A stretch of 63,989 nucleotides of DNA, counting the filler, from Basidiobolus ranarum (taxonomy: Eukaryota): NCBI GenBank assembly GCA_040143965.1. It is 6 parts of 6 records of this genome, joined end to end, with 100 filler letters (N's around TTAATTAATTAA, not from the genome) between each part and the next. Parts side by side here need not be neighbours in the genome. Positions count along the whole stretch, not along the records: positions 43,481 to 54,224 come from JASJQH010007545.1; 5 more parts are not named here. One strand, 5' to 3'. Positions within the stretch are counted from its first letter, which is position 1; each line of letters opens with the position of its first letter. The notes below the pieces were generated by a model. The model made no database searches, was not told the DNA's origin, and was given only the letters and a program-made list of their open reading frames with translations. A program made the translations under genes and the position numbers. Below are positions 10,796 through 54,324 of the stretch, one piece after another.

Positions 10796-10895
10796 NNNNN
10801 NNNNNNNNNNNNNNNNNNNNNNNNNNNNNNNNNNNNNNNTTAATTAATTAANNNNNNNNNNNNNNNNNNNNNNNNNNNNNNNNNNNNNNNNNNNN
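10796..10895. other. Artificial contig linker
   Basis: N44-TTAATTAATTAA-N44, stops in all six frames. Confidence 0.99.
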
Positions 10896-21668: not shown

Positions 21669-21768
21669 NNNNNNNNNNNNNNNNNNNNNNNNNNNNNNNN
21701 NNNNNNNNNNNNTTAATTAATTAANNNNNNNNNNNNNNNNNNNNNNNNNNNNNNNNNNNNNNNNNNNN
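21669..21768. other. Artificial contig linker
   Basis: N44-TTAATTAATTAA-N44. Confidence 0.99.
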
Positions 21769-32531: not shown

Positions 32532-32631
32532 NNNNNNNNNNNNNNNNNNNNNNNNNNNNNNNNNNNNNNNNNNNNTTAATTAATTAANNNNNNNNNNNNN
32601 NNNNNNNNNNNNNNNNNNNNNNNNNNNNNNN
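32532..32631. other. Artificial contig linker
   Basis: N44-TTAATTAATTAA-N44. Confidence 0.99.
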
Positions 32632-43380: not shown

Positions 43381-43480
43381 NNNNNNNNNNNNNNNNNNNN
43401 NNNNNNNNNNNNNNNNNNNNNNNNTTAATTAATTAANNNNNNNNNNNNNNNNNNNNNNNNNNNNNNNNNNNNNNNNNNNN
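43381..43480. other. Artificial contig linker
   Basis: N44-TTAATTAATTAA-N44. Confidence 0.99.
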
Positions 43481-43489
43481 ATTACAACA

Positions 43490-44161
43490 ATGGCCAAAGG
43501 CCTCAGCACTCGTCGCTGCTGTGGCTTCGTGCATCTTCGCACTGGCTGGCTCATCGTTACTTCCTATCAAATGGTACAATCTACATGTATTCTTACTACT
43601 GCTACAGTAAACTCATACTGACTCGTTGTCCTTTAGATTGGGGGCCTACTTTTAACTATAATGGCTATAATTCTGGTGGGTATTCTACGGTCCACTCAAA
43701 CTACATCTTTTGAGGGCTACAGCACACAGAGTATCCAAATGGCCTCCTATATTTTGCTTGGAATATCTATAATCAGTGCCATTGTCGGTTTGTTAGGTGT
43801 TGTGGGCACCTACAAGGTATGTAGATGAGACTCTAAATATCAAAAGTAGCTCGAATCTAACTATTATTCAGAGTAAACCAGGGGTACTTCTCGCCTACCT
43901 GATAATCGACGCTGTATGCATTGCTGGATGGTTTGTTGGAGTTATTGCAACATTCCGGGATCGTAATGCACTCTGGGGCATCCAGTTCAGCGTAATGGTA
44001 AGCAATCCGACAATGCTTGGTCATTGTAAATGATGTTGATACTAAAGACATTCTTCCTGTAGCTTCTATTACAAATCTATTTCTTCCTGCCTGTCCATCA
44101 GTATCGCCGAGAAATCTTGAACATCTCCAAATATGTGTGCGAGATTACTCTGAAATGCTAA
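43490..44161 (+). CDS. Small four-TM membrane protein, LAPTM/tetraspanin-like, 4 exons
   Basis: Splicing three phase-0 GT-AG introns gives MAKGLSTRRCCGFVHLRTGWLIVTSYQM|IGGLLLTIMAIILVGIL...AIVGLLGVVGTYK|SKPGVLLAYLIIDAVCIAGWFVGV...FSVM|LLLQIYFFLPVHQYRRE...LKC*. Confidence 0.8.
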
Positions 44162-46240
44162 TCGGCCAGTTGCACATACTAAACTCCATTATTATTATGC
44201 CTCCAAAACATCCTTTTCATGTAAAATACTGCTTTGTCCACTCCAAACCCGCATTAATTTCCAATAAATATTGGTTTCACTATTTCTCTGATCACCGTGA
44301 TTCTTGTGGAAATTCGTTTCACCTCTGATACGCTACATCAGATTGAGCCTCTCAGCGGTGGCGAATCACCATCCACTTCCACACTTAATTCATTCTCTTC
44401 GTCTGTCCCATAAGTCATCATTATCTAAAACAAGTAGCTTATTTTCTGGGTTATAACCTTGGTCGGATCTAGTTATGGTCTAAGCAACTTCTCCCAGAAT
44501 TTAGCGAGTCAGGTTCTCAACGATTTTCCGTGAATCATGAGCTAGGCAAGTTTCAATCAATGAACTTGGAATCCCCATATATTACTCCAATCCCAAACCT
44601 CATTCAAGGATTCATAAATGACAAATTGGGGATTTTCAATTACAATCTTCAAGACAATTAACACACGATAGTAACGAATAACCAGACGGAAGCTTTGTGG
44701 CACTGAATTTACCTCCAGTTGAAACCGAATCATCCAACGGTGTGGTTGCTCTCATGGGTCGTTATGTTCCAATAGAAATGGGTACGAATACTTTTCATCG
44801 ACTTGGATATTGTGTGCTAAATGCAGTTAAATCATTAAGCACCTCCTTTTCAATGGGATATGGCTGATATCTAGTGGAATGGTGCCACTTAGGCTCAGAA
44901 TATTTACCCATATGTTTAAAGTTGGGCGAATATTTGAGTGGCTGCGAAACTCCTAGATGAGATTATAATGGATCGAGCTGCTGGATAATCCCATAAATGT
45001 ATCATTAGAGGTGCAGTGTGATAACTGGCTGTAATGATGACCAAATGGTCTAGTAATTATGATTCTCATGCTTTCATCCCCCAAGAGTGAGGTGGATTTT
45101 GTGCAAGTACTCTATGCACAAGGCCACTATGAGGTAAGACATGATTTTAAATTACTGGACATTGGCTATGAAACCTGGTGAGAGTTTTCCGAGTTAGTTG
45201 TGTGTCGAAATACACATAGGTAGGGGTTTTTTCATTACTCCATAAGAATCTCATCGCATCCTTTATCACCATATATACCAACACTGGCTTTAGATGAAAC
45301 ATGGAGGTGGCAGGAGAAGCACTTCGGTATGTGAATACTGTGCCAAAGTAAGAGTGGACCAAGACTTTATTGAGCTAAGATGAGCTGGATGAAATGTAAT
45401 CTACACTACAAACTAGTTCAACATATAAAGTACTTTCTGATCTTGGCATATTTTGCAAACATTTCTTTATTTCTTTGGCATCCTTCACCAATTGCAGATA
45501 ATCTAAAAGTAGCTAGTACCAGGACTTGTACCACTCAAATACTTGAGAACTATCAGATTTGTTGCAAATTTTCAGTCAGTTTATTGGTACCAAACAGACA
45601 AAGTCTAGTCATCTATACATTTAGTTACTATGCTAGTAGCACCTCTATTGTAGTTGAGTTTTTACAACTCTATACAAAAAATCTCTTTGAATTTTCGTTT
45701 TCAAGAACTACATTCTTCCTATACATTCTACTTGAATATGGAAACTCCAATTCTGACTGCTATGAATAATGTATTCTAATCGAAGTTTTCTTGCAGTCGT
45801 ATTCGGCCAAACTAAAGATATGATCGTGTGTTAGTCACATTATTGGAAATAAACTAGTTTCTTGGGTATTCACTATCAACTCAAGTGACAATTGATATAT
45901 ATTGCAGGGCCAAAGTATAATTAATAGGTTGTATGACACAATCACATGTTTCCGAGCATGAAGTGTGCAATATCACTACCAACTTTGGGAGGGAATAATG
46001 CATCCATGTCCGATTCTCCACCATCAGAAGATCCTCCTAACATGTGTCCAAAAATACCGGTTCTTGGTGAGTTTTCCTTGAGGTTAAGGATTGGTGAAAT
46101 GAAAGTATGATGCCCATTAATGCATCTAATAGAGTTGGTTCTATTGTGACTATATCAAAATAAATGAGATGGATGAGAATTTATTCATCATTAAACCCAT
46201 AAATCCATAAAGTTGGGAATATCCCGGAACGAGTTCAGTA

Positions 46241-47989
46241 TCAAGTACGCTTCATAACTAGTTTTAGCACCTGATTCTGAGTAACCTGGCCTGTATAGGT
46301 AATTAATAGTTTACTTCCCTCTTGTCTCCACATGATAACATTTTCTGGAACTGTCGAGATGGTATATCCATTGGGATAATTGATTCGCTTCGAAAAGTTG
46401 ATCTCGGTGGGTGCCATGATCTTTGGATTGGCAACCCATTCTAGTGTAAATGATCCATTGGAATCATCAAAATGCATGGATTTGGCAATACCAGCTACGG
46501 CCGAGGCGTAAGTACGAGCATTCAATGGTTCCATATCAGGGCGAACTTCCCCACTGACAGAATCGAATAACGAGGACCCAGCATTGCCGTCATGTTCAAA
46601 TGATTTATACACCCATCCAGTCCAAGAATGAAGGAATTGATCCGAAACTTGAACTGAATGGAGTATGTCATCGCGTTGAGCCTGATTACCATGCCACATG
46701 GTGAACTCAGTTAGCATTCCCCCACAACTCAAACGATTCATATCCTTGACTCGGTTTTTATATGTCTCCTCAATAGAGACCAATTGAGGTGGCTTGTAGT
46801 AATGCCAAGAGAGTACAGTTTTCTCTGCGTTTGCTGCACCCCCTGGGACATTATTGAATCCTGAAAGAATATTCCAAGTAACTCCTTCGAAGAATATCAG
46901 CGTTTCATTATCAACTTTACGAATTTCCTGGTTGCATTTGTTCCACAATGGTTCAAGGACCTTTTTATCAGCAACCCCTGGGACCAACAGAGTAGGATCT
47001 GCCCAGGTGTCTCCAGCCCAAGGTTCTGTATTATATCCAGAACTATTGATCAGTTTAATATCAACAGAAAAAATCTTGCAAATCTTACCATTCATCAAGT
47101 TATATCCTAAAATATTGGAGTATTTTCCAAATTCTATTGCCAATTTCTTCCAGTAAGCGGCGAATGAATCTCCTAAACCATCATAATTGTTGTATAATCT
47201 GGAAAAGGGACTTTAGTTAATATGATCAACAAGAACCAAGAAAAATTCAATTATGCACCTTCCAAATGCATTTCCCACGGCCATCGTAAGGTAGCTCAAG
47301 TCCCATCGAATGGTACCACATTGACCAGGTAAGGGAATACCTCTCGCATCTGTTTTGAACGGTTGAAGCTTCTGTGGGAAAGGAAACTTTTTGATTCGTG
47401 AAACCCAGTCAGGCTTAGCAAACCACTGCGAAAGAGATCAGTTAATAGTGTTTCCAGCTCTCGCATCGAAGGAAAATACTTACTTCTGGTGCCCCTTCAC
47501 CACAAAACTGTGGAGCAAGTACATCTTGATGCATATCAATAAGAACATAGATGTTGTACTTGGCACAAAATTGTATAATCTTATGAGCTACATCAATATA
47601 CTTTTGATCGTAAACACCGCGAACTGGCTCAACACCAGCCCAGAGAACACCTTTTCAATTAAAGTTTATAAATAAATGTCTGACAATAAAGCATACTCGA
47701 AATATTTCCTACCAAGACGTATAGAGTTGATTCCTAATTCAGAGAGTAGCCGTGCATCCTCCTCACTAAAGGATTTAGCCGCGTCAAAGTGATCAATGAC
47801 GGGATGGTAAGGAGGATCCTTAAAGACAACATTAGTTCCATGGAAGAAACGAGCACGACCGGCGCTATCAATAAATTGATGAGTAGCTTTGTCGGACTTT
47901 ACAACACGATAGTTCTCAATCGCATTGGCGCGTTGGAATACGCTACAGGCAAGTATTGTCGTTAGCAGTAGTTTGGATAGGAGGCTCAT
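46241..47989 (-). CDS. Secreted GH5 endoglycoceramidase-like glycoside hydrolase, multi-exon
   Basis: Signal peptide MSLLSKLLLTTILACSVFQRANA; FIDSAGRARFFHGTNVVFK, LIDMHQDVL, LGYNLMN|EPWAGD (acid/base NEP), MLTEF (nucleophile), RTYASAVAG, GH5 C-terminal beta-sandwich. Confidence 0.88.
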
Positions 47990-49117
47990 GTGAGAAACTG
48001 AAAGAACGGTTTGTAGGTAGCTCCAAGCTCTGGATGTACGCTTTTATGCTCAAAGAACTCCTACTTATTTCCCACGTGCGGAAGATGCTGGACCTCTTGT
48101 AATGCGGTATTAGCAAAGCGAGCAAGTTTAAAGAGATGCTGCAGCTATAAAAAAGCCAAAGCGGCCAGGATCATCCAGAAATGCCCCAAGAATGAACTCG
48201 TACACCACAGTAAAGTTACATAATATCATGTCAAACCACTATCCAACGGTAATCATAGGTTCCCTTCTAGGCCGTACATATTGGTTGAGGTAATTCTCTC
48301 TTTAACATTCCATATTTAGTGTGGAATGACTTCTTGGGGAACATCAACGTTTTTGTGATAGTTGCATAAAGATGTTACAATTTGCATAAACTAGCACATT
48401 GTTGTAAGTACTTGGGGTGGATTACCAGCGTTGAGGATAATTTGAAATGAACACAGGCACCTATACATATGTTGAAAATAGAGAAAAATAGCAATAAGGA
48501 TACGTGGCTATAGTACTAGGGACGTCTGGAGAAAATTGGAGAGTTTTGCACAAGTTTGAAAATTTTGTCCTCTCTCAACATTTCTGGGATATATATCTGT
48601 TATAGCTTACAAGATGTTCAGTAAATGGAAGTTAAACAGGGTATTTGAATATCTTGGTGCCCAATTCTATTTAGCTTATCTTCTAATCCAGAATAATATT
48701 ACAACATACATCGCTTTGAATTTGTGAAAAATGACATATCAACATTTTGGTGCTTGATTCTGATATCTCAGCATAGGAGTAGACAAATTGGCCCTTACAG
48801 AGATTCTTCATAAGTACTTGTGATTTTAATAGATTTACGAAAACGCTACTCATGCATTCATCATATAATATAAGCACCTGATGAGTAATAGATGCTGCCC
48901 TCATCTACACATCAATGTGCTGAAAACCAAATTGAAGTGTTCATTCCATGTAGCAGAGCCATCCTTTCATCTACATATTATTGTTGCTATTCTATAATCA
49001 AAAGAACTTCAAAACCTGATGATGCTATATTTAGTTATTACACCAATCACACATAAAAGGCCTTTGCACCAAATCACTCGCAGAATTATAGACCTGTGAT
49101 ATATTTTACATGGGTAG

Positions 49118-50011
49118 ATGTTTCAAATACAACATGTGAGTAAGTCAACTAATTTTATACCTAATTCTATGCATCTGAGTAAAGATTCTCTGCAGAAGAA
49201 AGCCATTCAATATGTGGCTTCGAAGACTCAGAGTGGGGTACCAGTAGACCGAGATATCCGAATAACAGTTCACTTTCATCCAGACACACTATATCAAGGT
49301 CGCTTCTTGATAGAGGAGTTAGCCGATAGAGGTGAGTACCTATCTCAATTTGAAACGGGTACAAGCAATGGCGGCTTGACTGCTATAGTCGGCGGAGAGA
49401 GATGGCAGTGGGAAAGTTGCATCTTTGGAGGTATATACGATTCCGCTCCTGCCTTAGAACGTCCAAAATATGGTTCGCTAAACTTTAGGAAACGTAGCCT
49501 TGGGGGTTCTCCTCGTTTCGGCTCAGCTTTTTTTCAACTTAAAGAAGCTACTCTTGACCGAGCGACCTTTTGTTACCCTGATAGTTATTATTCCCCAGAA
49601 AATTTTTCTGTGGCTCAGAGTTCGTATCTCATAGATATAGCAAGAGCAGATCGTAAGGATATCCTTGATGACTACATTGAAGCACAAATTCATGGCCCAT
49701 TGTCGATTGCTAATGATGTTGAAATCCTGGTACTTGACCCTTGCTATAAAAATACAAGAGTAGAAGAGGTGGCGAGCCAATTGCCTTGCAAAGTTGAATG
49801 GCATTCAGGTTTCATTTTGTTGTCAGAAGTGATTGTTCAACATCAAAATTATCGCGGTGAAGAGTACGTACAACTTGGTTTAGCATTAATGAAAGATGGA
49901 ATGTTAACTGCAAAAGACATTGGTGAAGCAGCCGCTACAGGAAAATACAGCGCCCAAGATTTAAAAAAAGTATGGCACTATGTCGCCCGATGGGGTGGAA
50001 ATTACTCTTAA
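49118..50011 (+). CDS. DUF3626-family protein, intronless, bacterial-type
   Basis: ITVHFHPD, YLSQFETGTSNGGLTA..GGERW.WE, ERPKYGSLN, GGSPRFGS, RATFCYPDS, LDDYIEAQIHG, LVLDP, LKKVWHY, recognised from memory of DUF3626. True start may be the later Met (MHLSK, ~49169). Confidence 0.8.
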   Translation: MFQIQHVSKSTNFIPNSMHLSKDSLQKKAIQYVASKTQSGVPVDRDIRITVHFHPDTLYQGRFLIEELADRGEYLSQFETGTSNGGLTAIVGGERWQWESCIFGGIYDSAPALERPKYGSLNFRKRSLGGSPRFGSAFFQLKEATLDRATFCYPDSYYSPENFSVAQSSYLIDIARADRKDILDDYIEAQIHGPLSIANDVEILVLDPCYKNTRVEEVASQLPCKVEWHSGFILLSEVIVQHQNYRGEEYVQLGLALMKDGMLTAKDIGEAAATGKYSAQDLKKVWHYVARWGGNYS

Positions 50012-51618
50012 GTGCTGTAGGTTTGAAGTATTAATTTATTAGTAATATCTGTGGAATGTCATTTTAGGTATTCAATATTGTTGGGGTAATTGAATTGAAT
50101 GTCAAATAAAAGCCTTATATAATTATTTCACTTAATTCATGCTTCAATGAGTCAATACTGTTAGGAATACTCTGAGAAAAACTTCCACAAGATAGATATC
50201 CTTCACCAAAAGGAAGTTAACACTACCATTTATGCTGAACTTTGGAACACATTACTAACGTAACCGTAGACAAGACTGGAAACATATTACAGGTTGAAAG
50301 CAATGAAAAGTTAAGCTGAGAGTCACTAAATACTGGGTAATCAGAAGTTACTGACGCTCCACCATATTGATACTAGAATGACTACAGTTACGTGACTGAC
50401 TCAGCAGGTGCTTATTTCCCTAGATACTTACAAATATTGTGGAGACAAGTAGAGCCAGAAAGATACGGAGACTTTCATCCAAAATGTCGTAGTTAAAAGT
50501 AGTTCTCGTGTCATTCCTATAGCCATTCTACACTACTAAGTTTGGATCTTACTGACTTCGCTACCGAAAACCACCTTCCTATTCACTCTCATCTTGATTA
50601 TTTATCGATATTGGTGATGATGACAGCATCAAGTCTTTGTTGATGTAGAATATATTCCAGGTATTACACATTCCCAATTTCTTCCTAAATTTTCAATCAT
50701 ATAATCGTTCTTGCATTAGAACAAAAATGGTAAGTTTTGTTTTTGTGCTCAGGCTCTAAAATAGAAACCCACTCATAATAAATTGTAGGCAGATATGAAA
50801 TGCCATTTACCCGAGAAAACTCCAGTCCCGAAAATGGCAAGCACTATCTCAAGCAAAAGCTTTCCTATGTATTTTCTGTACGACACTAGATTGTAAACCA
50901 GACTTGGGAACGTCGTACATACAATAGATAAACAGAGTGTGTGATAGTTAGCTCTGTAAAAGAAAAGATATGACAGACAGTTGCTAGCTGGTAAGATATC
51001 AGTTATAGTATGCTGAGATATAGTTGAGAATTCCTCGGAAATGAATATATGTTATATATACTAGAATTGGCTTATTGATGTATTTATGGACAGACCACCA
51101 TGGGTAGAAAGGGTGGAAAGTGATAGTGAAGGCGCATGACTTTGCATTAAAACGATGCAATATTCCATAAAAGCGGTAAGAGTGGTGTATATATAGTGAT
51201 TTGTATCCCATTCTACTATTAAGACAAAGCAAGTTAGTGTCACAAATTATTTCAAATAGGCATGGCCAAAGTGGTAAAGAGTAGCGAATTTTAATCAATT
51301 TACTGATGAATTCAGTTAACTTCGCTTGAACTCAATACTAAACATACCATAGACCCTTAGTTTACCACAAATACTTGCTAAACTCTGCATCCAACTAAAA
51401 AACACCTCAGGAATTGGTAGGTTTGATATGCACACACCGGTTACACCAAATGTGTACCTGCAGCTATGTTCTACAGCAACTATAGACGCTATGTAACGAA
51501 CATGTGTACTAGTAATTTAATTTTATAAAATCCACTTACCACTTTTCGGATGCCACTGCGGATCCAAGGTATAAATACAACTCTAGCACGTTAATATTCT
51601 TAACACTCGAATATCTCA

Positions 51619-53111
51619 ATGACTATTACTTCTCGCCCTCACGTGATAATCTTTCCATATCCTGCTCTGGGTCACATCACTCCAGCTCTTCATTTAGCAT
51701 CCGCCTTATTTTCTACTTTTGACATCACATTTGTGACAACAACCTTTTACCTAGCTCGTACACAACAGATACTTGCTAAGGATCATTCACAGCTGATCTC
51801 TGATGTCAATGTTGTGGGCCTAAGTGAAGGTCTTCCAGGAGGTGAAGGTAGCACTGATAACCTTCCCAGACTAGCTGAAGCTACCGAGGGGCCTGTTTTA
51901 TCTCAAGGTTTTGATAACTTGGTGGTGGAATTATTGGAAAAGAAGCAACTGATAGCTATTATCACAGACACCTTCCTTGGTTGGGTTCAGGATATCGCCA
52001 ATCGTTATAGTCTACCCAGATTTCTCTTTTATACTCCTCCTGCCTCTGTTCTCTCTTTGATGTTTCAGTTGGAAGGATTTCAGAAGGATGGGCTCCTTTC
52101 CCCCTCCTCAGAAAAGCTCATCACTATCCCTGGCTTTCCAAAAGAACTTCAACTCTCTGACTTGCCATCTCATTTACAGGACTCTTCAAAGTTCATGTTT
52201 GGCTACTTTTTGAGGCACGCATCACGTGTCAAGGAAGCGGCGGGAATTCTTTGTAATACGGTATATGATCTGGAAAAGAATGTAATTGACGCTTTAAGAT
52301 CTGGTGAGATTTCCCAGGCCAAAAATGTACCAATTTGGACAGCAGGACCAATGATATCGGCAACCTTCTTTGAAGACCAAGTTGAAAAGAAACCATCTAC
52401 CAGTACTCCATTGAATGATACAGAAGTTGTCTCTGAAGAACAACAATGTTTGACCTGGTTAGATACCCAAGAAGAAGTAAGTATTATATTCCAAAGAGTA
52501 ATCGCTCATCAGAATTCCAAGTAACCCAACTATTCTTCTAGGATTCAGTTGTGTATATTTCATTTGGTAGTATCGCTGTTCTTTCCGAACAGCAGATTCA
52601 TCATCTAGCACAGGCACTTCTCTCTACAAATAAGCGTTTCCTCTGGGTTTTACGTCAACCTGAAGGCTGCACCTCAGCGCTTCCTGAAAACTTCCTTAAC
52701 GATACAAAGGAACAAGGACTCATAGTCAGCTGGTCACCTCAACCTAAGGTTCTCGCACATCCTGCTGTTCGTGTATTTCTTACCCACTGTGGTTGGGGTT
52801 CGACTATCGAGGCCATTTCTCTAGGGAAACCACTGATTGCATGGCCATGCTTTGCGGAGCAGAAGATCAATACAAGATTTCTTGTGGATGGTCTCCATGC
52901 TGCAATAGAAGTCAAGAAAGATACAAATGGGATGGCCGATACAACAGTGATAATTGATGTCATCGAAAGATTCTATTCCGATGAAGGACAGGTGATAGTA
53001 AATAACATGGAACAGCTTAGGACGGTAGTACAAAAAGCGGTAAAAGAAGATGGATCTTCAAAACAAGGCCTAAAAGATTTCATGAATGCCATTTTGAAGT
53101 ACAGTGTATAA
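51619..53111 (+). CDS. Family GT1 UDP-glycosyltransferase with plant-type PSPG box (475 aa, one intron 52477-52541)
   Basis: HVIIFPYPALGHITP (catalytic His), IITDTFLGW, CLTWLDTQEE|DSVVYISFGS, RFLWVLR, WSPQPKVLAHPAVRVFLTHCGWGSTIEAISLGKPLIAWPCFAEQ, AVKEDGSS. Confidence 0.93.
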
Positions 53112-54114
53112 TCTAATTTTAATAATTGATTACATATGAACAAATCTTGGACATTTCAATGTTTATATTAATTAAACTACTACCTGTGCATTCACCTTGA
53201 CACTCTTGAACTAGATCATTTCCCCTACATCGTGATATAAAAGTACTATTCACCCCCTCCCATCTGCCGAAAATGTTTGTTATAGATCTCTATCTGTCCA
53301 GCAGAAGTCAGAGCGTAAGTATCCATCTCAAAGCCTCTAATTAATATCGTATCAAATATATAATGGTATCATAACTATATTGATGATATAGTGTCATTAT
53401 ATACAGATATTAAGACTCGATAAATATCTTAACCTATGTATAATCTAATAGTAATATTATTAGTCTTATAATAGGATAGGTGTAGGTCAGATATCATTTC
53501 TAAAATAATGATTTTAATTTTGAAATACATTAATCTACACTATGATAGGCAGATGTAGGGGGAGCAAGACTACAATGATCTTGGGGTACATGTTCAATAT
53601 TAATCTCTATACTTAGTCACCTCGCAACATCATGAAACTAACATATTGAAGGTTTTCAATATTGTATTCTTTTTTTATGGTATTGTGACCATAACTTATG
53701 ATTCAGACAGGATATGTACTTAAAGTCTTCCTTCAGGTGACTCCTGCAGTACATACCTAAAAAATAGAATTAGATACCAGAGTTGCTCTGATATTGTAAT
53801 CTCACAAGACAAACATTTACAGTCATATATCAATGAACCATGTGCATTGATCTATTTTGACTGCGTTTAATATAATCTGTGTTAATGATTTTTACTTCTT
53901 CTACTTAGTTCTAAGAAATTTGGTCAGTTAGACGAGCTAACTCCTGATGTATCAGATAACGGCTTATTTTCATTCAATTCCATCAGCAGGTATGTTTGGG
54001 TTGTTCAATAATCTCCTATGGATATCTAAATTTCTTTAGGATACGTTCTGCTATACAACCTATTATATTTAAAGTCCCATGAAATCTGGAATCTTTAGCA
54101 ATATTGCTTGTACT

Positions 54115-54224
54115 TGTTAAAGTATTTGGGAGCCTGTTGGAAGTGGTTTGGAGAATTAGAGGAATTGGTGGTTTTCACTTATTGATTTATTGAGTAGAAA
54201 GTTGACATTTATAGTTTTGTCAAG
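54115..54224. mobile_element. Terminal arm of the same foldback/MITE family, cut by contig end
   Basis: TGTTAAAGTATTTGGGAGCCTGTTGGAAGTGGTTTGGAGAATTAGAGGAATTGGTGGTTTTCAC... is near-identical to the reverse complement of ~16027-16136. Confidence 0.88.
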
Positions 54225-54324
54225 NNNNNNNNNNNNNNNNNNNNNNNNNNNNNNNNNNNNNNNNNNNNTTAATTAATTAANNNNNNNNNNNNNNNNNNNN
54301 NNNNNNNNNNNNNNNNNNNNNNNN
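54225..54324. other. Artificial contig linker
   Basis: N44-TTAATTAATTAA-N44. Confidence 0.99.

Follow-up and report, generated by a model that had tools for sequence, protein, structure and literature searches.

A putative ADP-ribosyltransferase of the DUF3626 family, of likely bacterial origin, in the fungus Basidiobolus ranarum

DUF3626 (Pfam PF12294) is a large protein family whose only studied member is the Salmonella effector SopF. A second group of enzymes with an ADP-ribosyltransferase (ART) fold that bears on the present case, DarT, modifies thymidine in single-stranded DNA and is, as far as is known, always paired with a macrodomain antitoxin, DarG. SopF is a 374-amino-acid (aa) effector of type III secretion system 1 (T3SS1) that carries DUF3626 at residues 178-338 (PMC6682159). 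It is an ADP-ribosyltransferase with an isoleucine-tyrosine-glutamate (I-Y-E) triad, modifies Gln124 of ATP6V0C, and requires ARF GTPases; its complexes with ARF1 are available without (7DN8) and with (7DN9) nicotinamide adenine dinucleotide (NAD) (PMC10333799). Exchange of the residue contacting the N-ribose (E325A) or of either residue contacting nicotinamide (Y224A and Y240A) largely abolishes ADP-ribosylation (PMC11937434). Here, we describe a DUF3626 gene of the fungus Basidiobolus ranarum found in a stretch of 63,989 nucleotides (nt; spacers included) from assembly GCA_040143965.1, hereafter called the window. Its product, P0001, is probably a cytosolic, stand-alone, NAD+-dependent mono-ADP-ribosyltransferase of the DUF3626/SopF family that derives from bacteria. 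The gene, its likelier coding region, and its contig are as follows.

49118..50011, + strand: intronless open reading frame (ORF) of 297 codons plus stop, encoding P0001, a DUF3626/SopF-family protein with a predicted ADP-ribosyltransferase fold (ORF list, translation, Pfam, AlphaFold, and Foldseek)
49169..50011, + strand: likelier coding region, starting at Met18 and giving 280 aa (from model confidence and homologue starts)
43481..54224: contig carrying the DUF3626 gene, 10,744 bp, bounded by spacers and the sole physical context of the gene

A preliminary description of this DNA had reported a single-exon ORF of about 280-297 aa with five motifs. All five are present in the translation (HFHPD at residues 52-56, SQFETGTSNGG at 76-86, RPKYGSLN at 115-122, TFCYPDS at 150-156, and YIEAQIHG at 186-193), and the length range was apt, the Met18 start giving 280 aa. 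At the base composition of the window, 297 stop-free codons would be expected by chance with p ~3e-9. The gene is present in a single copy, a tblastn search of the whole window having returned no second DUF3626 copy or paralogue.

Family membership, which the same description had put forward from the motifs, is borne out by the Pfam model, which P0001 matches in two stretches with 195.4 bits (E 1.5e-57; gathering cut-off 27). The family had also been called uncharacterised and mainly bacterial; the latter holds, whereas the former does not stand in full because SopF carries DUF3626 (PMC6682159). A word-indexed protein search with P0001 returned 3587 homologues at E <= 1e-3, the best being K493DRAFT_367022 of Basidiobolus meristosporus (82% identity), which lies on a 168-kb scaffold. 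Among the best 120 of these 3587 matches, B. meristosporus is the only named eukaryote; the others are bacterial or metagenomic, at no more than 61% identity, and the named bacteria include Archangium, Kutzneria, Ramlibacter, Sorangium, Microbispora, Streptomyces, Kitasatospora, Nonomuraea, and Amycolatopsis. An exhaustive search of representatives clustered at 50% identity gave 1490 clusters at E <= 1e-3, 628 at E <= 1e-10, and 176 at E <= 1e-30, and a scan of GTDB species genomes placed DUF3626 in at least 584 of them (584 of 589 motif matches confirmed among those listed). The open literature, as far as it was searched, contains no report of DUF3626 or PF12294 in fungi, none that connects Basidiobolus with an ADP-ribosyltransferase, and nothing on SopF-like proteins, SopF homologues, or a SopF family; the B. 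meristosporus orthologue may already stand in a published table of horizontal gene transfer (HGT), and the supplements of PMC11291939 mention neither 367022 nor DUF3626 nor PF12294.

DUF3626 proteins come in two forms, a short one of about 280 aa, which includes P0001, and a long one of about 350-370 aa, which makes up the core of the Pfam model. Bacterial short-form proteins (from Archangium minus [P0003, locus L001], Kutzneria, Sorangium, Streptomyces, and Cupriavidus) share with P0001 a length of about 275-300 aa and the domain layout; the alignment is full-length and collinear, with 52-61% identity and more than 82% of the query covered, and P0001 agrees with the bacteria in 77 of 82 columns that do not vary among 28 bacterial sequences. 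They differ from it in that P0001 has a eukaryotic host, a guanine-plus-cytosine (GC) content of 0.41 rather than about 0.63-0.70, and the replacements R57T, L239I/M, and F292W. Mean column identity across phyla reaches 65% in the short-form alignment of 30 sequences. Long-form proteins share 34 invariant residues with the short form (including H54, Y118, F134, E188, H192, and W286-H287) as well as the C-terminal helical region; they differ by about 40 additional residues that form a helical segment at the N-terminus and by two insertions, one of about 45-60 aa ahead of the strand with the catalytic glutamate and one of about 13 aa within the C-terminal region. The Pfam model is matched by the long form end to end with 290-440 bits, compared with the 195 bits in two stretches of P0001.

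An AlphaFold2 model of P0001 built from the 30-sequence alignment has a mean predicted local distance difference test score (pLDDT) of 87.9 and a predicted template modelling score (pTM) of 0.85. Searched with Foldseek against the PDB, this model gave two matches at E <= 0.001, both to SopF (7dn9_A, E 4.8e-9; 7dn8_A, E 5.0e-8). DarT formed the second group (E 2.0e-3 to 4.2e-2, with 7yk3_C at 2.0e-3 and 7omw at 2.5e-3), and the weaker matches (CopC/OspC3, Tpt1 at E 0.37, mosquitocidal toxin [MTX], cholera toxin, and pierisin) are all ART folds; no entry of another fold scored better than E 0.79. At the sequence level, SopF is matched at E 9.6e-8 by a profile built from 30 homologues and at E 0.01 by the P0001 sequence alone. 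As modelled, P0001 has an ART fold of the histidine-tyrosine-glutamate (H-Y-E), diphtheria-toxin-like branch. The ART-like arrangement of His, Tyr, and Glu suggested in the preliminary description is thereby recovered, with a putative role for the His; because SopF is an established ADP-ribosyltransferase with solved structures (PMC10333799), this amounts to a rediscovery of what is known for one family member. The proposed active site and the C-terminal region map as follows.

49277..49279, + strand: His54 codon (FHPD), proposed first member of the H-Y-E NAD-binding triad
49469..49471, + strand: Tyr118 codon (RPKYG), aligned with SopF Tyr224 (phmmer, and hmmsearch against 7dn8)
49517..49519, + strand: Phe134 codon (PRFGS), aligned with SopF Tyr240, the nicotinamide-contacting aromatic residue
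49679..49681, + strand: Glu188 codon (YIEAQIHG), proposed catalytic glutamate, aligned with SopF Glu325
49745..50008, + strand: C-terminal, mostly helical region (about residues 210-297), pLDDT > 90, common to short and long forms

A primer table places SopF Y224, Y240, and E325 within the motifs that align with P0001 (PMC11937434), and the NAD-bound entry 7dn9 has an aspartate at the position aligned with Glu188. H54, Y118, F134, and E188 occur without exception in the 30 close homologues and in a set of 20 short and long forms; in the model, each lies on or beside a strand, with predicted strand 49-53 ending just before His54 and strand 187-191 holding Glu188. Judged from these alignments, the consensus of the DUF3626 family appears to be a canonical H-Y-E site from which SopF departs at the first position. 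Residues R246, G269, W286, and H287 are likewise invariant across the 20 short- and long-form sequences, as are R95, R115, R133, and R148 across both forms, and the C-terminal helical region is a possible substrate-recognition module.

The chemistry of P0001 is likely to be NAD+-dependent ADP-ribosyl transfer; here we infer both the use of NAD+ and activity in the fungus. His54, Tyr118, and Phe134 would hold NAD+, and Glu188 would activate the N-ribose so that ADP-ribose is transferred to an acceptor, which the C-terminal helical region would probably select. Because the bacterial homologues lack a conserved immunity or antitoxin neighbour, we consider a classical self-toxic toxin less likely than an enzyme that leaves its own cell unharmed and acts on a small molecule or on a target that is either regulatory or foreign.

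SopF belongs to the same Pfam family as P0001 and is its best structural match, and the catalytic SopF residues Tyr224, Tyr240, and Glu325 align with Y118, F134, and E188. SopF differs from P0001 in its long N-terminal helical part and its C-terminal membrane-association region within 374 aa (PMC6682159), in being injected through a type III secretion system, requiring ARF, and having Ile rather than His in the triad (PMC10333799), and in large insertions between the TFC..D strand and the strand of the catalytic glutamate. P0001 does not fit the description of a SopF-type injected effector, having about 47 residues before the first strand, a different C-terminus, and a fungal host. With an identity of 17% and with differences in architecture, partners, and delivery, P0001 is not a SopF orthologue, and nothing suggests that the two share Gln124 of ATP6V0C as a target. 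DarT (7OMW and 7YK3) has the ART fold and the H-Y-E branch in common with P0001 and constitutes its second-best structural group (E 2e-3 to 4e-2), but identity is 9-12% without a sequence-level match. No macrodomain was found near short-form genes, whether in the 150 neighbours scanned in bacteria or on the contig of the fungal gene, and no antitoxin-type partner was found among the 30 ORFs scanned on that contig; P0001 is therefore not part of a DarTG-type system, as no antitoxin gene accompanies it.

The bacterial origin of the gene was assessed with two trees. The quick tree comprised 65 rows, among them 42 of 80 bacterial loci, 15 representatives, and six long-form outgroups, and left out 37 surplus Streptomyces loci and one locus (L008) whose match holds a stop; the careful tree, with 61 rows, omits five representatives on long branches and includes the N-terminal 285 residues of a protein from Pedospumella. 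In the careful tree, with which the quick tree agrees, the two Basidiobolus proteins form one clade (support 100/100) that is sister to Archangium minus (99/90) and then to a metagenome-assembled genome (MAG) of the Phycisphaerales (97/93). This group lies inside a mixed radiation of actinobacteria, myxobacteria, and betaproteobacteria. Bacteria-to-fungus transfer, as proposed in the preliminary description, is thus supported by a phylogeny that nests the Basidiobolus clade inside bacteria. A myxobacterium-like bacterium is the best reading of the donor on these trees, though not proven. The gene would have been taken up by an ancestor of B. ranarum and B. meristosporus, before the split of the two species, and would then have acquired fungal base composition and come under purifying selection.

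Such an event is not unusual for Basidiobolus because bacterial genes are common in the genus (PMC7466969). Genes of bacterial origin make up 2-5% of its gene models, lie among fungal genes, are intronless in 61% of cases, and have a composition not distinguishable from that of fungal genes (PMC7466969). The DUF3626 gene shows the features of HGT genes given in that study, namely bacterial best matches, fungal genes on the same contig, the lack of introns, and fungal-like composition. The case for transfer is therefore plausible but fairly ordinary and reveals no new kind of system; it is one more concrete and well-supported example, its donor being probably a myxobacterium, among the many bacterial genes already known from Basidiobolus.

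After transfer, the gene appears to have been kept under purifying selection. The 28 bacterial sequences have 82 invariant columns, of which each fungal protein retains 77; the stem lineage changed at three otherwise invariant positions (R57T, L239I/M, and F292W). Between the two fungal proteins, differences fall in 5 of these 82 columns versus 48 of the 197 others (Fisher p = 2e-4). This sparing of the columns that do not vary in bacteria indicates that the same sites probably remained under selection within the fungal lineage.

Several observations weigh against the assignment of P0001 as a bacteria-derived ADP-ribosyltransferase of this family. NCBIfam holds no model or name for it. The model superposes on SopF with a template modelling score (TM-score) of 0.45-0.46 and a root-mean-square deviation of 9.1 A at 17% identity. 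The alignment with SopF scores below zero in the segment of His54, where SopF has no His, so the role of that residue is a proposed one. The tree program flags the fungal rows as deviant in amino-acid composition and their stem branch is long (0.48), which makes the exact donor less certain than the support values imply. Finally, ART folds also serve NAD+ hydrolysis, RNA 2'-phosphotransfer, and ADP-riboxanation, and so the fold does not fix the chemistry.

DUF3626-like domains of similar predicted fold occur in proteins of phage virions, in RHS proteins, and in giant viruses, with 13 BFVD matches at E <= 0.001 and structural matches in the ESM Atlas at TM-scores of 0.55-0.58 over about residues 5-232 of P0001. 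They differ from P0001 in being fused to Mu-F, RHS, or ParB-like parts, or in being viral, in identities of 16-24%, and in alignments outside which the C-terminal helical region (residues 232-297) falls. Stand-alone look-alikes from giant viruses of protists in BFVD include proteins of Bodo saltans virus (E 1.7e-13, the best match) and Yasminevirus (E 4.7e-10) and, more weakly, of Tupanvirus, Klosneuvirus, and a mimivirus; at the level of single domains, the look-alikes are phage Mu-F minor capsid proteins, a 932-aa ParB-like protein of Bacillus phage CP-51, and RHS proteins.

The preliminary description had gone further and called the gene product a conflict enzyme. On such a reading, it would be a toxin or defence ADP-ribosyltransferase directed against bacteria, viruses, or competitors, or one that kills its own infected cell. 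The broad fold family is clearly used in conflicts: examples are the T3SS effector SopF and the DarT toxins, the Atlas neighbours of P0001 include minor capsid proteins of the phage Mu-F type (PF12294 in 12% of one cluster) and RHS-repeat proteins, and the BFVD matches include, besides Bodo saltans virus, Bacillus phage CP-51 (E 3.2e-11) and a Nodularia phage 'DUF3626 domain-containing protein'. A match to phrog_8314 (E 4e-5) and a secreted family member with a CotH domain and a type IX secretion system (T9SS) tail (P0386) point in the same direction, as does the behaviour of the gene in bacteria, where it is accessory and mobile, with transposase, integrase, or TniB genes accounting for 6 of 150 immediate neighbours and phyla intermixed on the tree. 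In a tblastn search of 50,697 phage records, a single weak match was obtained, to Exiguobacterium phage vB_EalM-132 (E 4e-6, 27% identity, 58% of the query covered).

The genomic context of the short form speaks against a conflict role. Neighbour genes were called with a home-made filter on GC at third codon positions (GC3) and a 70-aa minimum, so small partner genes could have been missed. Within these limits, the 437 genes lying up to three positions away from DUF3626 in 80 bacterial loci included no conserved neighbour. Their largest cluster of homologues has 5 members, encoding a Trypsin_2 protein in 5 Streptomyces loci, and looks like synteny rather than a system. A Pfam scan took in 150 of the 155 immediate neighbours and found no macro, ARH, PARG, or NUDIX domain among them; besides the 6 mobility genes already mentioned, there were 4 GNAT acetyltransferases and 1 amine oxidase (loci L002, L020, L037, L052, and L061), and the remainder were unrelated enzymes, regulators, and transporters. 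PADLOC-DB 2.0 gave 0 families at E <= 0.1 for P0001, P0003, and P0206, and neither a signal peptide nor a toxin-delivery domain was seen in the 297 aa of P0001. The 65% mean column identity across phyla is also unlike that of fast-evolving toxins engaged in an arms race. The earlier wording was therefore overstated, given that no conserved partner, PADLOC match, or secretion signal was seen, and we regard a conflict role as possible though unlikely. The short clade instead looks like a partner-less, unusually conserved accessory enzyme that does not poison its own cell.

A further alternative retains the ART fold but assigns it another chemistry, namely that of an NAD+ glycohydrolase, of Tpt1- or DarT-like modification of RNA or DNA ends, or of ADP-riboxanation. 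The structural matches that follow SopF are indeed DarT (E 2e-3), the ADP-riboxanases CopC and OspC3, and Tpt1 (E 0.37), and the invariant R95, R115, R133, and R148 could bind a phosphate-rich acceptor. However, the only sequence-level relative of known chemistry is SopF, which ADP-ribosylates a protein Gln, and the DarT matches are weak (query TM-score [TMq] 0.33-0.42, 9-12% identity) and lack the obligatory macrodomain partner of DarT. Such a departure from ADP-ribosyl transfer seems improbable.

The short clade might also be a self-harmless ADP-ribosyltransferase that acts on a small molecule (an antibiotic, a polyamine, or another xenobiotic) and whose gene the fungus, a dweller of gut and soil, captured from a myxobacterium-like donor for detoxification or resistance. 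The rifampin ADP-ribosyltransferase Arr acts on a small molecule in this way. Hints in this direction, none of them decisive, are the lack of an immunity partner, the high conservation across phyla, and the accessory and mobile nature of the gene in bacteria, together with the recurrence of GNAT (2 fusions and 4 of 150 neighbours) and amine oxidase (1 fusion and 1 neighbour), which are raw counts without a background frequency. An erythromycin-esterase gene adjoining the Archangium copy and the UDP-glycosyltransferase neighbour of the fungal gene may be added to these hints, the latter likewise not decisive. We rate this more specific proposal, a small-molecule or detoxifying role, as rather improbable; if true, it would be of greater interest than any other outcome. 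For the likelier reading of P0001 as an ADP-ribosyltransferase with an acceptor of whatever kind, the value of the fungal gene lies in the short stand-alone form itself, which combines a canonical H-Y-E site with strong conservation, for which we found no partner gene, and which has become fixed and selected in a fungus. It offers a clean entry point, outside a pathogen, to the targets of DUF3626 enzymes.

The genes that flank the DUF3626 gene on its contig bear on whether it is a fungal gene at all.

46244..47989, - strand: glycoside hydrolase family 5 (GH5) endoglycoceramidase-like gene K7432_010095 (P0271, 501 aa, Basidiobolus ranarum), five exons and four introns
51619..53111, + strand: UDP-glycosyltransferase gene with one intron (Pfam UDPGT, E 1.1e-22 on the second exon)

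In the protein database, P0001 and P0271 are both assigned to a contig of 10,744 bp. P0271 maps exactly as five blocks from 47989 to 46244. The four gaps between them measure 58-63 nt, and one is a clear GTAAGT...CAG intron; the ORF at 46244..47212 (- strand) carries the Pfam domains Cellulase and Glyco_hydro_5_C, and all other named homologues of the protein are fungal endoglycoceramidases or GH5 proteins (of Mucoromycota, Ascomycota, and chytrids). The UDP-glycosyltransferase gene holds a canonical GTAAGT...TAG intron of 65 nt at 52477..52541, the frame change and the intron having been read directly. Between them, the DUF3626 gene is an intronless ORF of fungal composition (GC 0.414 and GC3 0.32, with a GC of 0.39 for the window and of 0.63-0.70 for the six bacterial DUF3626 loci examined in this respect) amid intron-bearing genes, in agreement with the arrangement described earlier. 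Because the composition is fungal and intron-bearing genes lie on both sides, bacterial contamination is very unlikely as the source of the gene. That it is not a working fungal gene in any sense, being a contaminant, an assembly chimera, or a decaying relic, is hardly credible, for although the contig is short (10.7 kb) and the annotated residues 1-17 lack a homologue counterpart, the gene has an 82%-identical orthologue on a 168-kb scaffold of a second species, fungal composition, intron-bearing flanks, an intact ORF with a chance probability of ~3e-9, and invariant sites spared four-fold between the two species (p = 2e-4).

The start of the coding region probably lies at Met18 (49169) rather than at Met1, which would give a protein of 280 aa. 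Residues 1-20 have a pLDDT below 50 in the AlphaFold2 model, and the alignment with the B. meristosporus orthologue (P0002) and with bacterial homologues begins only at about residue 18-24, which together make the Met18 start the likelier one. Near the 5' end of the ORF, an in-frame 60-nt GTGAGT...CAG stretch at 49136..49195 (+ strand) is about as long as the local introns. Were it spliced out, the protein would lose an S-x-Q segment that has an aligned counterpart both in the bacterial homologues and in the B. meristosporus model, and for this reason we read it as probably due to chance rather than as an intron.

Fused forms of DUF3626 also occur, though rarely. GNAT is fused to the domain in P0126 and P0387 and a flavin amine oxidase in P0142. 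A dedicated search for longer fused proteins found three, with Myb and ATP-grasp domains, with CotH and a T9SS tail, and with GNAT; their domains do not agree on a function. The second of these, P0386, is a metagenomic protein of 1138 aa with a full long-form DUF3626 followed by LTD, Fn3-associated, CotH kinase, and T9SS C-terminal sorting domains, i.e. a secreted multi-domain form. The first, P0385, is a second eukaryotic DUF3626 protein, from the chrysophyte Pedospumella encystans, in which an 818-aa EukProt model has DUF3626 and then Myb and ATP-grasp. It is 44% identical to P0001 and groups with Cupriavidus sp. BIS7 (96/84), apart from Basidiobolus. It is independent of the fungal gene; another transfer, a merged gene model, and DNA from prey are possible sources.

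In bacteria, one match (6001-6867 of L008, Streptomyces achmelvichensis) contains an in-frame stop and has a gene with a phage-integrase domain upstream; it could represent a mobile-element copy that has decayed. In four of the first six bacterial loci (L001, L002, L005, and L006), the neighbours passed the GC3 filter (locus GC + 0.12) whereas the DUF3626 gene itself did not, a pattern that hints at compositionally atypical and so recently moved genes in their bacterial hosts.

The window consists of six concatenated contigs of 10795, 10773, 10763, 10749, 10744, and 9665 bp, the sixth being cut, which look like length-sorted contigs of one assembly. They are joined by spacers of the form N44-TTAATTAATTAA-N44, with 44 N on each side.

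10796-10895, 21669-21768, 32532-32631, 43381-43480, and 54225-54324: artificial spacers (from N-run coordinates and spacer sequence)

As the pieces are separate contigs, adjacency across a spacer is not physical, and genes beyond 54325, lying past a spacer on another contig, are unlinked to the DUF3626 gene. Translations from that contig (54875..59842) read as ordinary eukaryotic genes and comprise an intron-split DEAD-box helicase, a PA/RING-H2 protein, and an ORF resembling ribosomal protein eL31, and a translation from a further separate contig (41746..43380, + strand) is an RRM protein with a tail rich in RGG/RG.

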